64,000 bases of DNA from an uncultured Candidatus Saccharibacteria bacterium. Its GTDB lineage: Bacteria; Patescibacteriota; Doudnabacteria; UBA920. Under the pieces are notes generated by a model that saw nothing but the letters and a program-made list of their open reading frames with translations, was not told the DNA's origin and did no database searches. The number at the start of each line of letters is the position of its first letter. The first letter of the stretch is position 1. The position numbers were made by a program, and so were the translations under genes. Below are positions 1 through 5,957 of the stretch, one piece after another. The stretch spans positions 881 to 64,880 of the forward strand of contig CAYYQK010000001.1 of assembly GCA_964473815.1 (NCBI GenBank), in the 5' to 3' direction.

Positions 1-1096
1 AATCCGGCGTGGAGAATGGCCTACGCTAGCTCCTTTTGGATATGTTAATAATTCAAAAACTAGGACTATTGAACCACATCCTTTTTTGGCAAAAGTCGTG
101 GTTAAGGCTTTCGAGCAATTTGCTACGGGAAATTATACTTACGAATCTTTAGCTTTGTATTTGCAGGAATTGGGAGTTGAAACAAAAAATCGCACACCTT
201 TGAGCAAACACTCTATTGGAAAGATGTTGATGAATAAAACTTATCTTGGGTTTACTAAGCATAAGGGGGAGTATTTTCAGGGGAATTTCCCAGCTATTAT
301 TTCGCCATTTTTATTTGAATCCGTACAAACAGTTTTAAAAAGAAAAACTAAGAAAAGAAAAAACAAACCACAAAATAACTTTCCTCTTACTGGTTTATTA
401 AATTGCGGTGAGTGCGGTTGTGCAATTACAGCTTGTTGGATAACTGGAAAATCCGGTGGTATCTACCGTTATTATCGTTGCACAAAAAAGAAAGGAAAAT
501 GTTCACAAGGAACATTGCAAGAAAAGTATTTAGTGGAACAGATCAAAGATAAATTATCTACAATTCTTATCCCAGATTACTGGACGGATAAAATGTTCGA
601 ACAAGTTGAAGTCTGGGAAAAAGAAGATGTTGAATCTACAAAGGTATATAAAACAAATTTGAAAACAAGAATGGAGGAGAATGAAAATACTCTAAATAAA
701 TTAGTTAGTGCATATCTTGATGGTGATATCCCCAAAGAAAATTATCTTCTCAAAAAAGAAGAATTATTAACTCGGAAACAGATTTTGAGTCAAAATCTTA
801 AAGATTCCCGAGGAGGAGGACAAAGTTGGATTAAACCCCTCAAGGAGTGGATTTCAGTAACAAAAAATGCCACTTTCGTGGCATCTTCTGGAAATTTAAG
901 TGAACTTAGAGAAATTGTTTTTCAAGTTGGATTAAACCCCCAACTTGTGGATAAGACTGTACAATTTCGTTTCCGCCCGCCCTGGAGTTCAATCCTAGAA
1001 ACATTGGGTGAAACTGCAATTCTCAATATTCAAAATGATAAAAAAGAATCTTCTGAAATTAAAAAAATTAAAGAAAGTTCCTTCTGGTGGAGATGA
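1..1096 (+). CDS. large serine recombinase, 5'-truncated by window edge (recombinase domain + Cys-rich zinc-ribbon C-terminus)
   Basis: Frame 2 is open from nt 2 upstream of the listed TTG at 86 (..IRRGEWPTLAPFGYVNNSKTRTIEPHPF..). CGECGC..YRYYRC zinc-ribbon motif. K/E-rich coiled-coil tail typical of large serine recombinases. Confidence 0.65.
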   Translation, partial: IRRGEWPTLAPFGYVNNSKTRTIEPHPFLAKVVVKAFEQFATGNYTYESLALYLQELGVETKNRTPLSKHSIGKMLMNKTYLGFTKHKGEYFQGNFPAIISPFLFESVQTVLKRKTKKRKNKPQNNFPLTGLLNCGECGCAITACWITGKSGGIYRYYRCTKKKGKCSQGTLQEKYLVEQIKDKLSTILIPDYWTDKMFEQVEVWEKEDVESTKVYKTNLKTRMEENENTLNKLVSAYLDGDIPKENYLLKKEELLTRKQILSQNLKDSRGGGQSWIKPLKEWISVTKNATFVASSGNLSELREIVFQVGLNPQLVDKTVQFRFRPPWSSILETLGETAILNIQNDKKESSEIKKIKESSFWWR

Positions 1097-1584
1097 TGGG
1101 AGTTAAACCCATGTCCAAAACCTTTCAATCACCACATTGTTCACAAGATTAGTCCGTTAAATTACCAACACGCTAACCAACGGACAACGAAGCGTATTGG
1201 GTGATATATTAAATTTCGGTTGCGCGATATATATCAGACCGTACAACTATATCTTCAAAATAAACCAGCAAATCTGATGTCGAAGCAACATCAGCACTGG
1301 GCATTTACGCTATATTAGGCAAATGCAGGCGCGAAGCTAGCATTAGAAAATGCAGCTACGACCTTGTTCCATGCGTTTTCACGTATGTTTGCCTTCAGGA
1401 TTTACGAGCTTGTAGGCTGGCTCGTCTTGCATATATCGTGATGTTAAAGTCCTGTCAAAATCCGGCATCCCCATAGAATGCTCATTTGAGCACTCATAGT
1501 TTGCCACAAAAATGACTGTTTGTCAAGGTATTTGCTTCTATCGTCCGTCTTTCTTATACTTAACAAAAAAGGAGCGACTGATAT

Positions 1585-2040: not shown

Positions 2041-2490
2041 CTAGCGACGTTTTGACGCAGTTTTCTTCGGAGCAGATTTTTTTGCGCCTACTTTAGGCTT
2101 CGCCGCTTTTGCAACTTTAGTAACTTTTTTTGCAGCTTTTGGTACAACTTTTTTAACTACTGCAGAGGTAGCAGCAAGTTCTTTAGAAATTACATCCCAG
2201 TGGCCTTTTAGTTCAGCAGCTACTGCTGCTAGTTCTGGTGCGCTGACATTTTTCAAACCTTTGTAATTTTTTGCTGCTGCATCCACCACTTTGTTATAAG
2301 AATCTTTGGTAGCTTTAGTAGTTTTTTCTAATCCTGCTAAAACATCATTCTGCATATCGCCAACCCATTTGGCCACTTTTTTGCGGTTCTTAGAATTTTT
2401 ACCAGTTAACATGTAAACTCCGGCTGCAGCCGCTGCTAAGGCAGCAACACCAGCACCAACTGCTATCGCTTGCTTTTGTGATTTTTTCAT
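2041..2490 (-). CDS. Lys/Ala-rich histone-H1-like protein with N-terminal membrane anchor
   Basis: N-terminal hydrophobic A/G/V segment. C-terminus is KKV/AKK/PKK repeats (low complexity, H1/AlgP-like). Confidence 0.5.
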   Translation of the reverse strand: MKKSQKQAIAVGAGVAALAAAAAGVYMLTGKNSKNRKKVAKWVGDMQNDVLAGLEKTTKATKDSYNKVVDAAAKNYKGLKNVSAPELAAVAAELKGHWDVISKELAATSAVVKKVVPKAAKKVTKVAKAAKPKVGAKKSAPKKTASKRR

Positions 2491-2504
2491 TGCTTTAAAA
2501 TTAA

Positions 2505-2783
2505 TTATTTTTTAGTTTTAGGTGAGATTTTGCGGCGGCGTAAACTGCTAATAAATGTTAGCACTGCCCCGAGGTTAAAGCCTCTCTTGCGAATATTTTC
2601 TCGTAAGTTCGCAAAATCTTCAGTAACAAATTCTGTGGCGCGCTGCGCAGTGCGAGCTACTTCTTTAACTGTTCGCACAAAAATAATCACATACACCAAA
2701 GCGACAGCCAGGAGCACAGAAATAATTATCACTGCAATGCCAGTGATAATAAAGAAAACATCAACTAAAGAAGAATCGTGCAT
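2505..2783 (-). CDS. small membrane protein, hypothetical
   Basis: One long TM helix followed by a basic tail. No homology recognised. Confidence 0.4.
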   Translation of the reverse strand: MHDSSLVDVFFIITGIAVIIISVLLAVALVYVIIFVRTVKEVARTAQRATEFVTEDFANLRENIRKRGFNLGAVLTFISSLRRRKISPKTKK

Positions 2784-2850
2784 AAATGTAGTATATTTTT
2801 AGTATATCACACCGTTTCTGAAATTATTGTGTTGATATGCTGTGTAAATG

Positions 2851-3414
2851 TCACCGTGCATATTTGCTGATAATTTCTTTCAGAGTCTGCTCATACTGGG
2901 TGCGAATGGTGTCGTCGCGTCCAGCTTCAATAATTTCATCATTGTTGTCGGTAGCAGCTGCCGTCCAGTTGTAAGAACCCGAAACATAACCTTTGTCCGT
3001 GACCACGGCCTTTAGGTGCATAATGTAGTTGTGATCGTTCATTGCCACGGGAATGCCGGCACTACGGAGTTCATTTACTAAACTGCGTTGCGTTTCAATT
3101 TCCGCAGATTGCTTTTTGTCGACAATTCCTTCTACAGTTAAGCCGCGGTGCTTGGCTGCTAGAAGCGCATCTTTAATATCATCACGAGTAAAAGTGTAAA
3201 CGGCAAAATAAACAAACTTTTCCGCATCCTGTATGGTGTTGATGACCTGGTCGTTCGCACGGGTGTCGTGGTTATAATAAACTTTAACCTGTCGCTCGCT
3301 TGCCGGCTTGTAATGATAGGTATAGTAAAACTGACCGCTTATTGCGATGAGTAAAATAATGATAACTAAATAAACCTCATCTCGCTTGAATCTCATGTCT
3401 TTATTGTACAACAA
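2851..3414 (-). CDS. phospholipase D / Nuc-like HKD-motif nuclease family protein (single HKD domain, N-terminal TM)
   Basis: HLKAVVTDKGYVSGSYNWT matches HxK(x4)D..GS.N of the PLD superfamily. N-terminal signal anchor. Confidence 0.65.
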   Translation of the reverse strand: MLYNKDMRFKRDEVYLVIIILLIAISGQFYYTYHYKPASERQVKVYYNHDTRANDQVINTIQDAEKFVYFAVYTFTRDDIKDALLAAKHRGLTVEGIVDKKQSAEIETQRSLVNELRSAGIPVAMNDHNYIMHLKAVVTDKGYVSGSYNWTAAATDNNDEIIEAGRDDTIRTQYEQTLKEIISKYAR

Positions 3415-3461: not shown

Positions 3462-3899
3462 TTAACGATCAGTAACCCCGCGAGTCTCGCGTTTATCGTC
3501 ACGCTGTTTGATATATTCGCGCTTGTCAGCTTTTTTACGACCAAAGCCAATACCAATTTTTATTTTTATCAAACCGCGGTTGGCAACGTACATTTCCATC
3601 GGCACAATAATAGAACCTTTTTCTTTTCCAACCAGGGCGTTAAGTTCCGATTGCTTCAAAAGTAATTTACGAGTTTGGGTGGGCTCGTAATTATCTTGTT
3701 TAGCATATTTGTATGGACCGATGTGCGCACCAATTAAAGTTGCACTTTTGCCAGACACTTTTACATAACTTCCTGCAAGTGACACATTACCTTCTTTCGC
3801 AGCCTTCACTTCGGGGCCTGACAATATCAAACCAGCATCAATTGTGTCCCTGATGTCATAATCGAATTTAGCTCGTTTGTTAATTGCTAGCGCTTTCAT
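3462..3899 (-). CDS. smpB: SsrA-binding protein SmpB
   Basis: Conserved SmpB motifs (KRAKFDY, GLILSGPEVKA, basic C-terminal tail). Typical ~145 aa size. Confidence 0.9.
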   Translation of the reverse strand: MKALAINKRAKFDYDIRDTIDAGLILSGPEVKAAKEGNVSLAGSYVKVSGKSATLIGAHIGPYKYAKQDNYEPTQTRKLLLKQSELNALVGKEKGSIIVPMEMYVANRGLIKIKIGIGFGRKKADKREYIKQRDDKRETRGVTDR

Positions 3900-4017
3900 G
3901 ACTATATTTTAGCAAGATAAGATAAAGCCGCCCAGAGGGCGGCGTTGAGGGTCCTGGAGACCTTAAGACAGGCTTGTCATGCATATCGTACCATGCACAC
4001 GAACCCTTTTGCAAGGG

Positions 4018-4091
4018 TGGTGGACCGGACGGGAATCGAAGCCGTGAAGACTGGGTGACAAGCCTGTCTCGCCCTACCAGGGACCCGGCCC
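4018..4091 (-). ncRNA. tRNA-like structured element A (degenerate): 7-bp acceptor stem, TTCGATT T-loop, encoded A-CCA 3' end, no canonical anticodon arm. Followed by a hairpin + U-run terminator at 3927-3943.
   Basis: Seen on the minus strand: GGGCCGG..(T-loop TTCGATT)..CCGGTCC-A-CCA. The closing pair of the T-stem is C.C. The anticodon region is replaced by an extended bulged hairpin (GACAGG/CTTGTC). Shares an upstream motif with element B at 12473-12548. Confidence 0.3.
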
Positions 4092-4193
4092 ACGTAAAAT
4101 TATCATTACATAACCCTAATAAAGTCCTGATAAAGAAAAACCAAAATAAATATAAAATCTTAAGGTTTTCTTTATCTTTTCCGAGATTTTGCT

Positions 4194-4199
4194 ATAATT
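4194..4199 (+). promoter_or_regulatory. -10 box (TATAAT) 6 nt upstream of argS ATG; leaderless mRNA predicted
   Basis: gcTATAATtaagccaATG with no SD. The same arrangement recurs at several genes in this window. Confidence 0.4.
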
Positions 4200-4205
4200 A
4201 AGCCA

Positions 4206-5957
4206 ATGAAAGCATATATTTCCGAACTGGTTGCACAGGCAATACGCAATATAAGTCCTGATGAAGCCGAAGCCGTGTTAGGCTCCGGTGTTTTTGATGT
4301 GTCTTATCCAAAGCCTGGCTTTGGTGATTACGCCACAAATGCGGCCATGGTTTTGTTCAAAAAATTCAATGTTGCTCCCGCCAAAAACCCAATGGAGTTT
4401 GCTTCTACTCTGGCCGAAGAAATTACCAAACTGGATCACAAAAATTCTTTTGCCAAAGTCGAAGCTGTGGGCGGATTCATCAATTTTAATTTGTCTGCAA
4501 AAGAGTTACTTTCGAATCTAGAACAAATCTTAAATCTGCAAGATAAATACGGCCGTAGCGATGCCGGCGCAGGCCGCACAATGATTGTAGAATATTTCCA
4601 AAATAATATTGCTAAACCACCGCATGTTGGACACTTGCGCAGCGCAGTTATCGGCGATGCTTTAGTAAGAATTTTAAATTTTGCTGGCTACAAAACTATT
4701 TCGGATACACACATTGGTGATTGGGGAGTGCAGTTTGGAATTTTGCTTTACGCCTACAAAGAATTTATTAAAAATGGTGGCGACAAGAACCAATTAGAGA
4801 AGGATCCTATAGTTGAACTGAATAAATTGTATGTAGACATGTCCGCGCAAATCGATGCTAAGCCAGAACTGCGTGATCTTGGTAAGGAAGAATTCAAAAA
4901 ACTCGAAACTGGTGATGCAGAAAATCGTGAACTGTGGGAATGGTTTGTAAAAGTTTCATTAGAGGATTTTGAAAAGTATCGTCAGATTTTGGGCATGCTA
5001 AACTTTGACCACAATTTAGGCGAAAGTTTTTACGAAGACAAAATGCCAGCAGTGTTGAGCATGTTCGAAGATAAAGGCTTGGTTAAGACTGGAGAAACTG
5101 GTGAAAAATATGTTGACCTAGAAGACTTTGGTTTAGGTCGCTGTATATTAGTTAAGAGTGATGGCGCCACAACTTATCATTTACGAGACTTTGCTACATA
5201 TATTTATCGTAATCAGGAATTCGACTTTTACCGCAACCTATATATAGTAGACGTGCGTCAGTCGCATCACTTTAGACAATTGTTTAAAGTTTTGGCAATG
5301 GCTGGTTTTTCAGCAGAAACTGATAGCGTTCATGTTGACTTAGGCTTTATGAGTCTGCCAGAAGGTGCGATCTCTACACGCAAAGGCAATACCATTTCAC
5401 TGGAAAACTTAATTGATGAAGCAGAAAAACGTGCCCTTGCTATTATCAATGAGAAGAATCCCGAGCTCACTAACAAAGAAGAAGTTGCCAAGCAGGTTGC
5501 GCGCGCTGCGATTAAATATTTTGACTTGTCTCACAATCGCGAAACAGAAATTGTTTTTACTTGGGAGAATGCTTTGAGTTTTGAAGGGAATACTGGCCCA
5601 TATTTACAGTACACTCATGCGCGCATCAACGGTATTGCAAAAAAGTTTGATGGTGAAATTAATACGAGTGTAAACTCGGAATCTAATTTAAATGTGGATG
5701 AACAAAATGTGCTGCGCAAACTCCAATTCTTTGCAGAAATAGTGGAAGTAATATCAGAAAACTATTTTCCGAATTTGCTCTGCAACTATTTATTTGAACT
5801 TGCTCAGATTTATAATTCGTTTTACGAAAATAATTCTGTCATAGCCGCTGAAACAGAAGATTCAAAAACTTTACGTATGCAAATTTCTAAAGCTACTGCC
5901 CAAGTTTTGAAAAATGGCCTCGCTCTATTGGGTATCGACGCGCCAGAGGAAATGTAG
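4206..5957 (+). CDS. argS: arginyl-tRNA synthetase
   Basis: Class I HIGH-type motif PHVGHLRS. Length and conserved ArgRS regions including the C-terminal anticodon-binding domain. Confidence 0.9.
   Translation: MKAYISELVAQAIRNISPDEAEAVLGSGVFDVSYPKPGFGDYATNAAMVLFKKFNVAPAKNPMEFASTLAEEITKLDHKNSFAKVEAVGGFINFNLSAKELLSNLEQILNLQDKYGRSDAGAGRTMIVEYFQNNIAKPPHVGHLRSAVIGDALVRILNFAGYKTISDTHIGDWGVQFGILLYAYKEFIKNGGDKNQLEKDPIVELNKLYVDMSAQIDAKPELRDLGKEEFKKLETGDAENRELWEWFVKVSLEDFEKYRQILGMLNFDHNLGESFYEDKMPAVLSMFEDKGLVKTGETGEKYVDLEDFGLGRCILVKSDGATTYHLRDFATYIYRNQEFDFYRNLYIVDVRQSHHFRQLFKVLAMAGFSAETDSVHVDLGFMSLPEGAISTRKGNTISLENLIDEAEKRALAIINEKNPELTNKEEVAKQVARAAIKYFDLSHNRETEIVFTWENALSFEGNTGPYLQYTHARINGIAKKFDGEINTSVNSESNLNVDEQNVLRKLQFFAEIVEVISENYFPNLLCNYLFELAQIYNSFYENNSVIAAETEDSKTLRMQISKATAQVLKNGLALLGIDAPEEM

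Follow-up and report, generated by a model that had tools for sequence, protein, structure and literature searches.

What does the roughly 300-bp spacer between argS and smpB encode in a patescibacterial genome that also carries a genuine transfer-messenger RNA (tmRNA)? The question is addressed here for a 64-kb stretch of DNA (herein the window; contig CAYYQK010000001.1 of an uncultured Candidatus Saccharibacteria bacterium), and all positions are numbered within it. An earlier note, made from the letters alone, had proposed that the spacer holds a transfer RNA (tRNA)-like structured RNA beside smpB, with its own terminator, and that this RNA is not a tmRNA. The proposal is borne out: eight intact homologues were found, with compensatory changes in the acceptor, D and T stems, and the genuine tmRNA lies elsewhere, at 1085-1472 (ARAGORN; 120 bits in Rfam). 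By the comparative evidence set out below, the element is a conserved, strand-specific gene for an anticodon-less tRNA(Ala)-like RNA; a complementary segment that co-evolves with it and a terminator follow. It lies on the minus strand, between the divergent argS and smpB and upstream of smpB on smpB's own strand.

3462-3899, minus strand: smpB, confirmed by Pfam
4206-5957, plus strand: argS, confirmed by Pfam
4018-4091, minus strand: RNA A, a 74-nt tRNA(Ala)-like RNA, defined by direct reading, its minimum free energy (MFE) cloverleaf, covariation and its own covariance model (70 bits)
4092-4093, minus strand: GU at positions -2/-1 of A, invariant (8/8 copies), able to pair with A73-C74
4091-4085/4028-4022, minus strand: acceptor stem of A, 7 bp, with G3.U70
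4082-4072, minus strand: D-arm of A, short, with GG in the loop
4070-4046, minus strand: anticodon-arm region of A
4045-4029, minus strand: T-arm of A
4021-4018, minus strand: ACCA end of A, i.e., A73 and the encoded CCA
3943-3927, minus strand: intrinsic terminator, GCCGCCC-TCT-GGGCGGC followed by TTTATCTT, called by a scan tool

Minus-strand positions 4093-4018 read directly as GU-GGGCCGG-GU-CCCUGGUAGGG-C-GAGACAGGCUUGUCACCCAGUCUUC-ACGGC-UUCGAUU-CCCGU-CCGGUCC-ACCA, and the trailer 3′ of the CCA as CCCUUGCAAAAGGG-UUCGU-GUGCAU-GGUACGAU-AUGCAU-GACAAGCCUGUCUU-AA-GGUCU-CCA-GGACC-CUCAAC-GCCGCCC-UCU-GGGCGGC-UUUAUCUU. The acceptor strands GGGCCGG (4091-4085) and CCGGTCC (4028-4022) with G.U at 3:70, the T-loop TTCGATT, the discriminator A and the encoded CCA (4021-4018) are all present on the minus strand as the earlier note had described them, and the hairpin and U-run terminator that it placed at 3943-3927 is the one called by the scan tool. 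Other parts of that description need adjustment. The GC-rich island holds over ~3950-4099 (GC fraction 0.55-0.61 vs. ~0.40 around it), whereas the rest of the spacer (4100-4199) has a GC fraction of 0.23; the island covers ~175 bp and not the whole 300 bp. The C.C mismatch in the T-stem exists as the innermost pair of ACGG(C)/(C)CCGT but is specific to the window genome, the seven other copies having G-C or A-U. The anticodon arm is nonstandard, as had been said, but the local GACA/TGTC hairpin put in its place is not conserved; comparison favours an irregular GAGAC/GUCUU plus GG/CC arm, or a long-range helix. The region folds more stably than shuffled sequences (z = -4.2).

Relatives were found by SmpB similarity and their contigs fetched, and one metagenome pattern scan was added. 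A scan of genome contigs with SmpB gave 4 loci; the metagenome scan gave 1 new member (L047) and 11 other matches, nearly all of them ordinary tRNA(Ala) genes. The eight intact copies are that of the window (= L059), L008, L009 (= L010, L011), L047, L060, L061, L065 and L067 (= L068); the nearest named SmpB relatives are Saccharibacteria, "Patescibacteria group" and Doudnabacteria metagenome-assembled genomes. A comparison of relatives for compensatory changes, which the earlier note had suggested as a check, revealed both conservation and covariation. RNA A is 72-74 nt long across copies. G1-C72, G2-C71, G3.U70, A73 and CCA are kept in 8/8 (L061 without the first G of the acceptor strand), while compensatory changes occur at 4:69 (C-G/G-C), 5:68 (C-G/U.G/U-A), and 6:67 and 7:66 (G-C/A-U). 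The D-stem of 3-4 bp (CCCU/AGGG, CCA/UGG, UCAU/AUGG, CCAG/CUGG, GGCA/UGCC and others) covaries at each pair, and the D-loop GG and the T-loop UUCGAYU are invariant. Run on the unedited MAFFT alignment, RNAalifold independently finds the acceptor, D, T and terminator stems together with hp1, the hairpin that follows the CCA; the unconstrained MFE structure of A alone is a four-arm cloverleaf in 6/7 copies, and in L067 too.

ARAGORN makes no call at the element, either in the window or at loci L001-L004 and L007-L011; in the window it finds four tRNAs and the tmRNA, whose tag is ENAWNKVVAAFSNASFAPAFA (21 residues). The tRNAs and tmRNA of the window genome all encode CCA. Rfam at gathering thresholds agrees with ARAGORN in finding nothing at the element; the scan against Rfam covariance models had been proposed as a check. 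In a permissive scan of 3850-4250, the Rfam tRNA (RF00005) and tmRNA models have no match at E<=10; the sole match is a sub-threshold tRNA-Sec (18.9 bits, E 0.33, threshold 47). RNAalifold uses the GU at -2/-1 to lengthen the acceptor stem to 9 bp, and this extended stem probably accounts for the weak tRNA-Sec match. Candidate roles of the invariant GU are an RNase P context, a transcription start or a masked 3′ end. With the covariance model of A, scores are 59-79 bits for the seven training members and 61.8 bits for L067, which was held out; the best nonmembers, genuine tRNA(Ala) genes, reach 41-44 bits, and tmRNA ends ~22-24 bits with a model that cannot span tmRNA inserts. The T-arm and the acceptor 3′ strand of A are near-identical to the 3′ ends of tRNA(Ala) and many tmRNAs.

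The arm at the anticodon position is irregular (e.g., GAGAC.GG/CC..GUCUU), with 5-9 bp and loops of 6-9 nt across species. Its "anticodon" triplets differ by species (UGU, CGU, CAC and others), none of them being an Ala anticodon, and position 37 is C in the copies with a 7-nt loop. Because loop size and triplet vary among species, A is judged to be non-decoding and unable to serve as a decoding tRNA. G3.U70 is the established alanine identity rule for alanyl-tRNA synthetase (AlaRS). By this rule, an identity set that stays fixed while the other pairs of the same stem covary argues for selection for alanylation.

The 5′ part of this irregular arm has a second complement in the trailer, ~40 nt 3′ of the CCA.

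4057-4070, minus strand: H5′, the 5′ strand and loop of the anticodon-like arm, which pairs with H3′ (3978-3965); exact inverted repeat

The trailer inverted repeat reported in the earlier note, AGACAGGCTTGTCA/TGACAAGCCTGTCT, shows no mismatch over 14 nt (3966-3979 and 4056-4069); a second repeat, quoted there slightly inaccurately, is present as GGGTCCCTGG/CCAGGACCC with a 1-nt bulge. What had been overlooked is that, by its covariation, the first is a selected long-range helix and not a mere repeat. The helix, herein H, spans 13-16 bp over all copies, and its sequence differs in each species with complementarity retained. L067, which was left out of model building, forms a fully paired 14-bp H, again with a sequence of its own.

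Window: H5′ GAGACAGGCUUGUC, H3′ GACAAGCCUGUCUU
L008: H5′ CAAUCGGUUCGUC, H3′ GACGAACCGAUUG
L009: H5′ AGCAAAGGGUCACC, H3′ GGUGACCCUUUGCU
L047: H5′ GGAUUCGGAUCACC, H3′ GGUGAUCCGAAUCU
L060: H5′ GGUAGUGCACUUGAC, H3′ GUCAAGUGCGCUACC
L061: H5′ GAGUACAAAGUCGAC, H3′ GUCGACGUUGUACUC
L065: H5′ AGAAUAACAUUGAC, H3′ GUCAAUGUUGUUCU
L067: H5′ GAAGCACAGUUGAC, H3′ GUCAACUGUGCUUC

A structural alignment of 7 sequences (N-padded and left unchanged by MAFFT) covers the acceptor, D, T, H (as a pseudoknot), hairpin hp3 of the trailer and the terminator. Over this whole structure, 97.6% of cells are paired and 27/43 pairs show changes on both sides; 0/500 shuffles match these values, and slid controls reach 40-51%. 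H alone is 99% paired, with compensatory changes at 12/15 pairs and no indels. In alignment-free duplex energies for H5′:H3′, cognate pairs average -24.1 kcal/mol vs. -5.4 kcal/mol for non-cognate ones, and the cognate H3′ is the best partner in every row and column of the energy matrix; for the whole 5′ half against the trailer, the values are -42.5 (cognate) and -21.9 (non-cognate). The single unpaired cell in H is A.G. Since wobbles in H read as G.U only on the minus strand and no cell is A.C, selection is taken to act on the minus-strand RNA and not on the DNA. On this evidence the inverted repeat is a selected, co-evolving RNA-RNA helix.

Promoter-like sequences lie on both sides of A.

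4102-4125, minus strand: P1, promoter-like motif ACTTTATTAGGGTTATGTAATGAT, 10 nt upstream of G1 of A
4004-4017, minus strand: hp1, CCCUUGCAAAAGGG, directly 3′ of the CCA, holding the -35-like TTGCAA (4014-4009)
3998-3993/3984-3979, minus strand: hp2, inverted repeat
3985-3993, minus strand: P2, extended -10-like TGGTACGAT, with its hexamer (3990-3985) in the loop of hp2
3919-3978, minus strand: predicted RNA B, ~60 nt, made up of H3′ (3978-3965), hp3 (3962-3950), the terminator (3943-3927) and the U-tract (3926-3919)

The 24-nt P1 motif ACTTTATNAGNGTTATGTAATGAT has only two occurrences in 64 kb, with 0 expected by chance; the second (12558-12581, minus strand) lies 9 nt upstream of tRNA-Asp, with 22 specified bases identical. 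At the P1 place homologues keep TGTAATGMT/TGYMAAACT, TGTAATGCT or TGYMAAACT, and the tmRNA promoter has TGGCAAACT. The conserved promoter-like element immediately 3′ of the CCA, which the earlier note had also passed over, comprises a -35-like TTGAAA, TTGACT or TTGCAA in 7/8 intact copies (with TTGAAA in the remnant at L007 and a weaker TTGGAG in L009), a spacer of 17-18 nt in 7/8 copies (~19 nt in L009), and a -10 of the form (TGg)TAnnAT, in which GTAnnAT is invariant in the 7 aligned copies; L067 has GATATTAT. The -35 and -10 elements of P2 sit in hp1 and hp2. RNAalifold on the unedited alignment gives 2 compensatory pairs for hp1; hp2 has one compensatory A-U/G-C change, and three copies lack it. 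The P2 site receives promoter calls from the scan tool in L060 (11/12) and in L065 and L008 (10/12 with TG); the window copy, at 8/12, receives none. The composite P2 motif has 4 occurrences in the window, once before tRNA-Ser, and the layout of the element recurs at tRNA-Asp, whose CCA is directly followed by TTGACA-17-TAAAAT (12430-12472, minus strand). In 7/8 copies, 6 nt separate the P2 -10 hexamer from the first G of H3′, and in 7/8 transcription from P2 is predicted to begin at the very base where B starts to pair, 7 nt past the hexamer; in L067 that base is 11 nt past it. Because a conserved sigma-70-like promoter lies between the CCA and H3′, a separate ~60-nt RNA B made from P2 is likely, with a predicted single-stranded seed, hp3 and the terminator.

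H5′ also pairs locally, in the anticodon-like arm, with the 10-11-nt linker that precedes the T-arm. Species by species, this linker is similar to the 3′ part of H3′ (both have GUCUU in the window), and H5′ thus has two rival partners. hp3 (GGUCU-CCA-GGACC) has compensatory changes at 4/5 pairs. A further pairing, H0, would join the loop and 3′ half of hp3 (3957-3949) to the complementary positions 6-15 of A (4086-4077), i.e., the acceptor base and the 5′ side of the D-arm; it is 92% paired with compensatory changes at 6/11 pairs, in an alignment that needed hand-placed bulges, and we regard it as probable. The binding of a separate B to A is computed to be favoured by 15-24 kcal/mol. The acceptor and T-arm together with H have a pseudoknot topology, which is outside what MFE programs can show; the MFE structure of the full transcript is an extended rod of 25-30 bp with a branched apical part. 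No alternative pairing overlaps the terminator stem.

The reading that we favour, and to which we give about an even chance, is that the element encodes an alanine-identity, non-decoding mimic of tRNA, or of the tRNA-like domain (TLD) of tmRNA, whose fold is gated by a complementary partner. We infer transcription from P1 and P2, processing, alanylation, a partner protein and a direction of regulation along the following lines. A would be transcribed from the tRNA-type promoter P1, trimmed by RNase P and 3′ nucleases as a tRNA is, and aminoacylated by AlaRS, as tRNA(Ala) and the tmRNA TLD are; the D-loop GG and the canonical T-loop would give it its L-shape. The H3′ segment would be present in cis in read-through transcripts and probably also in trans as RNA B. 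Pairing through H would compete with the anticodon-like arm of A, and with its D-arm too if H0 forms, and A may switch in this way between a tRNA-shaped form and an unfolded or extended duplex. Most likely A would serve as a decoy for, or a donor to, a tRNA(Ala)- or tmRNA-binding partner (such as AlaRS, EF-Tu or SmpB), and B, or the trailer, would act as a gate on A or an antidote to it. We favour a role of this kind for B because A is already a complete cloverleaf without it, because B targets a loop with a 5′ single strand, because the pairing seems to extend into the tRNA core, and because the hairpin of B mimics the 5′ strand of A. A more specific version, possible and in our view doubtful, is a two-RNA module: an alanine-chargeable, anticodon-less mimic would disturb or redirect SmpB, EF-Tu or AlaRS processes (ribosome rescue), and a co-evolving antisense RNA would unfold and neutralise it.

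Several points weigh against a gated mimic. At least 7 related loci show loss or decay of the element, which is therefore dispensable, and the known sequences are eight in all, from a narrow clade. L061 is short of one G in the acceptor 5′ strand, and in L067 the distance from the P2 -10 to H3′ is 10 nt, not 6, after a 7-nt duplication. Both promoters, the RNA ends, processing and charging are predictions. H0 is not species-specific by energy (-18.0 vs. -14.2), and its pair counts come from a hand-fitted alignment; the whole-structure alignment was likewise fitted by hand to the proposed structure. In the read-through RNA, the extended duplex (-79.1 kcal/mol) is more stable than the cloverleaf with local hairpins (-62.1 kcal/mol) by ~17 kcal/mol.

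The main rival to a gate gives the partner a structural role instead: B, or a cleaved trailer, would be a subunit of a two-piece tmRNA-like particle without an open reading frame (ORF). H would be a long, regular substitute for the weak anticodon-like arm, equivalent to helix H2 of tmRNA, the acceptor, D and T arms would stay folded, and the Ala-charged complex would act with SmpB on stalled ribosomes without a tag. H does begin right after the D-arm, as H2 does in tmRNA, and it measures 13-16 bp in every copy; G3.U70, A73, CCA and the T-arm are common to tmRNA 3′ ends, and 7/8 copies adjoin smpB in a block that also holds the tmRNA. Base-paired two-piece tmRNAs and tmRNAs without a coding sequence (CDS) are moreover known to exist (PMC11915505). 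The 3′ strand of H, however, follows the CCA and does not precede the T-arm, unlike every known tmRNA form, and A has a real D-stem, as in tRNA and unlike the TLD. In the same direction, the covariance model of A scores tRNA(Ala) at 41-44 bits and tmRNA ends at ~22-24 bits, Rfam tmRNA models give nothing at E<=10, and the complementarity appears to run through H0 into the D-arm and acceptor, which would unfold a TLD. The same genomes hold a full tmRNA, and the L047 copy is not beside smpB. We consider such a particle unlikely.

The duplex might also serve processing or turnover alone, as an RNase III-type site at which the read-through RNA is matured or destroyed, with no separate B; the promoter-like sequence after the CCA would then be the next promoter, as after tRNA-Asp, or non-functional. 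The 25-30-bp rod, as the MFE structure of the full transcript, is long enough for RNase III, and the promoter that directly follows tRNA-Asp makes a promoter after the CCA ordinary here. A cut within H would nevertheless destroy A, whose tRNA features are clearly selected. P2 would moreover drive only ~60 nt ending in a strong terminator, smpB having its own promoter, and the predicted P2 start is the first paired base in 7/8 copies. Furthermore, hp3 and the local anticodon-like arm, the alternatives to the duplex, show covariation as well; a switch would need this, a cleavage site would not. Taken together, these points make a helix for processing alone quite unlikely.

The setting of the element bears on its relation to smpB. 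Of the eight intact copies, seven sit in a conserved block, ileS-argS-element-smpB-PLD-like-two small ORFs-(tmRNA). The copy at L047 has another context, with the glucose-6-phosphate dehydrogenase gene (zwf) divergent upstream, and a CsoR-like gene and the thioredoxin reductase gene (trxB) downstream. Remnants are known at three loci: L007, whose SmpB is 95% identical to that of the window, keeps the half from T-arm to terminator only, and L063 and L064 keep scraps of P1, the -35 region and the terminator tail. No element is present at L062, L066, L001 or L002. Close relatives with 73-95% identical SmpB thus have either no element or a remnant only. The earlier note had not seen that proximity to smpB is not obligatory, as L047 and the several close relatives without the element make plain. 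From the remnants, the element-free relatives and the position of L047, the element is judged to be ancestral to the clade, autonomous and repeatedly lost; it is an independent small-RNA locus, vertically inherited within one Patescibacteria clade. A second copy was found in the window neither by sequence searches nor by the covariance model of A, and viral contigs gave 0 matches to two family-specific junction patterns.

3906-3911, minus strand: smpB -10 (TAAAAT), 6 nt before the ATG at 3899, separate from the element

TAAAAT, TACAAT or TAGAAT followed by 6 nt and the ATG precedes smpB in all compared loci except L009, where TAAAAT lies 1 nt before the ATG, and it does so whether the element is present or not; this placement suggests that the smpB mRNA is leaderless in this clade. 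An alternative is a cis-regulatory smpB leader, in which the TLD mimic would bind SmpB and control read-through of the terminator (autoregulation by mimicry). The element is tRNA/TLD-like, lies directly upstream of smpB on the same strand, and has a terminator between itself and the gene. This reading is rejected as very improbable, and synteny largely refutes it: in nearly every compared locus, element-free ones included, a -10 belonging to smpB lies 6 nt before the ATG; no alternative pairing overlaps the terminator stem; L008 and L009 have 280 bp with an opposite-strand ORF between terminator and smpB; the genes downstream at L047 are csoR-like and trxB; and relatives with SmpB 73-95% identical have lost the element or keep remnants. 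That the element has no function, being a tRNA(Ala) duplicate in decay or the 3′ piece of a tRNA or tmRNA that a mobile element left behind, with a chance inverted repeat, would fit the 3′ half at L007, the scraps at L063 and L064, the missing acceptor G in L061, the patchy distribution and the serine recombinase that abuts the tmRNA in the window, but we dismiss it as scarcely credible: eight copies with 27 compensatory pairs and a species-specific yet complementary H are impossible by neutral decay, the 3′ end is unlike that of the window's own tmRNA, the copy is single in the window and has no match in viral contigs, and the divergence of the homologues excludes recent horizontal copies of one sequence.

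Other candidates were tried and rejected. A second or permuted tmRNA fails on the real one at 1085-1472 and on the lack of a tag frame, pseudoknots or a model match; a repeat family or miniature inverted-repeat transposable element, on the single copy in the window and on inverted repeats that are internal. Phage origin was set aside with the 0 junction-pattern matches in viral contigs, the D-arm-pattern matches in L005 and L006 being unrelated tRNA-like sequences. The ORF at 3974-4201 (plus strand) has no Pfam match and is antisense to freely varying helix sequence, which speaks against a protein-coding region. Trailer-encoded peptides are excluded by ORFs that are not conserved, an hp1 length that differs by 2 nt, and stops and peptides that differ. 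A decoding or mistranslating tRNA is rejected on the loop sizes and triplets, which are not conserved; 6S RNA, which is a rod of about 180 nt with a central bubble, on the lack of an Rfam match and on a rod that here has a branched apical part and no such bubble. Antiterminator pairing of the A acceptor 5′ strand with the terminator was dropped, as it occurs in some copies and not in others.

Further observations concern the surrounding genes and other tRNA-like RNAs. The PLD-like (PLDc_2) gene and the two small ORFs (2041-3414, minus strand, in the window, and at related loci; no Pfam match for the small ORFs) are kept between smpB and the tmRNA gene, in a stable block ileS-argS-smpB-PLD-x-x-ssrA. 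At L008 (2730-3000) and L009 (2720-2990; also L010 and L011), an insertion of ~280 bp between the element terminator and smpB holds a small opposite-strand ORF, 62 aa in L009, with no Pfam match on record. In the window, a large serine recombinase ORF (86-1096, plus strand; Recombinase and Zn_ribbon_recom) ends inside the 3′ end of the tmRNA gene (1085-1472, minus strand), and because of this overlap a genomic island integrated at ssrA is suggested; L060, too, carries a serine recombinase, immediately past its smpB block. Very short tRNA/TLD-like RNAs with alanine identity occur in viral and metagenome contigs (L024, 6755-6798; L038, 5693-5737; L056, 96-175; L028, 10225-10295); they score 32-44 bits by the model of A and receive no ARAGORN call where it was run; among them are a 44-nt acceptor plus T-arm minihelix in a phage tRNA array and an 80-nt RNA with a tmRNA-like 5′ end, GGGGCAGAAAUGGCUUCGAC. 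The viral contigs L005 (89-147) and L006 (1076-1134) share a tRNA-like CCCTGGTAGGG ... GGTTCGATTCCCGTCCCATCCA that has no ARAGORN call and is unrelated to the element.

Bacterial chromosomal tRNA mimicry is known mainly from tmRNA and Y-RNA-like RNAs. Literature searches returned no description of an element such as this one, and by its sequence and predicted fold it is a new structured-RNA family of narrow distribution among tRNA/TLD mimics, outside current RNA families. It would add a second alanine-identity tRNA mimic beside a complete tmRNA, and one with a co-evolving partner segment. Such a pair would offer a compact natural system for the cellular effect of an uncharged or charged anticodon-less tRNA(Ala) and for the restraint of a mimic, and would bear on how Patescibacteria, a mostly uncultured group with minimal genomes, tune ribosome rescue or their use of alanine. 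The family is missed by tRNA finders and Rfam; it supplies a ready-made covariance model and a pseudoknot or switch whose covariation is unusually clean. If the proposed gating is true, the element would be an effector-antidote RNA-RNA switch on the translation rescue of ultra-small bacteria, a kind of system so far undescribed.

Compared with known RNAs, the element shares with tRNA(Ala) the 7-bp acceptor, G1-C72, G2-C71, G3.U70, A73, the encoded CCA and the D-loop GG, as well as a T-arm, GCGGG-UUCGAYU-CCCGU, with the same sequence as in genuine tRNA(Ala) genes (e.g., L015); the P1 motif is shared with tRNA-Asp. It differs in lacking a decoding anticodon arm (in tRNA a 5-bp stem and 7-nt loop with U33 and a purine at 37), in its variable region of 1 nt and D-arm of 3-4 bp with a 3-4-nt loop, and in having a co-evolving complementary partner; it is also missed by ARAGORN and RF00005. 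Like tmRNA it has a tRNA-like domain with G3.U70 and CCA, whereas at 74 nt it has no conserved tag frame and tmRNA has a tag frame, resume codon, stop and pseudoknots. The TLD-only tmRNAs of phage DS6A, jakobid mitochondria and Mallomonadaceae plastids resemble it in an alanine acceptor/T-arm module without anticodon or tag frame, in their ~65-80 nt and, for the element, in being usually encoded near smpB. The TLD-only RNA of mycobacteriophage DS6A is reported to inhibit tmRNA in Escherichia coli, possibly by titration of SmpB, and SmpB is present alongside the CDS-less tmRNAs of jakobid mitochondria and Mallomonadaceae plastids (PMC4131195, PMC11915505). No precedent among these shares a bacterial chromosome with a full tmRNA, and none has a complementary partner. 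In contrast, the element coexists with a complete tmRNA (2.5 kb away in the window; L009-L011 too) and has a paired D-stem, a dedicated partner, a predicted second promoter and no UUCGAC/GGAC TLD signature.

Two-piece (circularly permuted) tmRNAs likewise form a helix beside the tRNA-like core from two RNA segments of one locus that are parted by the CCA end. Permuted genes, however, put the acceptor piece before the coding piece and split the TLD, whereas in the element the TLD is continuous, the arm helix alone is bimolecular and there is no coding piece or Rfam permuted-tmRNA match. Antisense pairs such as RNAI/RNAII, CopA/CopT and the small RNAs of type I toxin-antitoxin systems differ in another way: predicted B is encoded downstream on the same strand as its putative target, which is a tRNA-like non-coding RNA and not an mRNA or primer. 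Like them, predicted B would have a 5′ seed from +1, complementary to a loop of its target, as well as a terminator and a hairpin within; strand exchange could let the pairing spread, and the module is self-contained, being gained or lost as a unit. The element also shares with these pairs an extended, co-evolving complementarity between two RNA segments.

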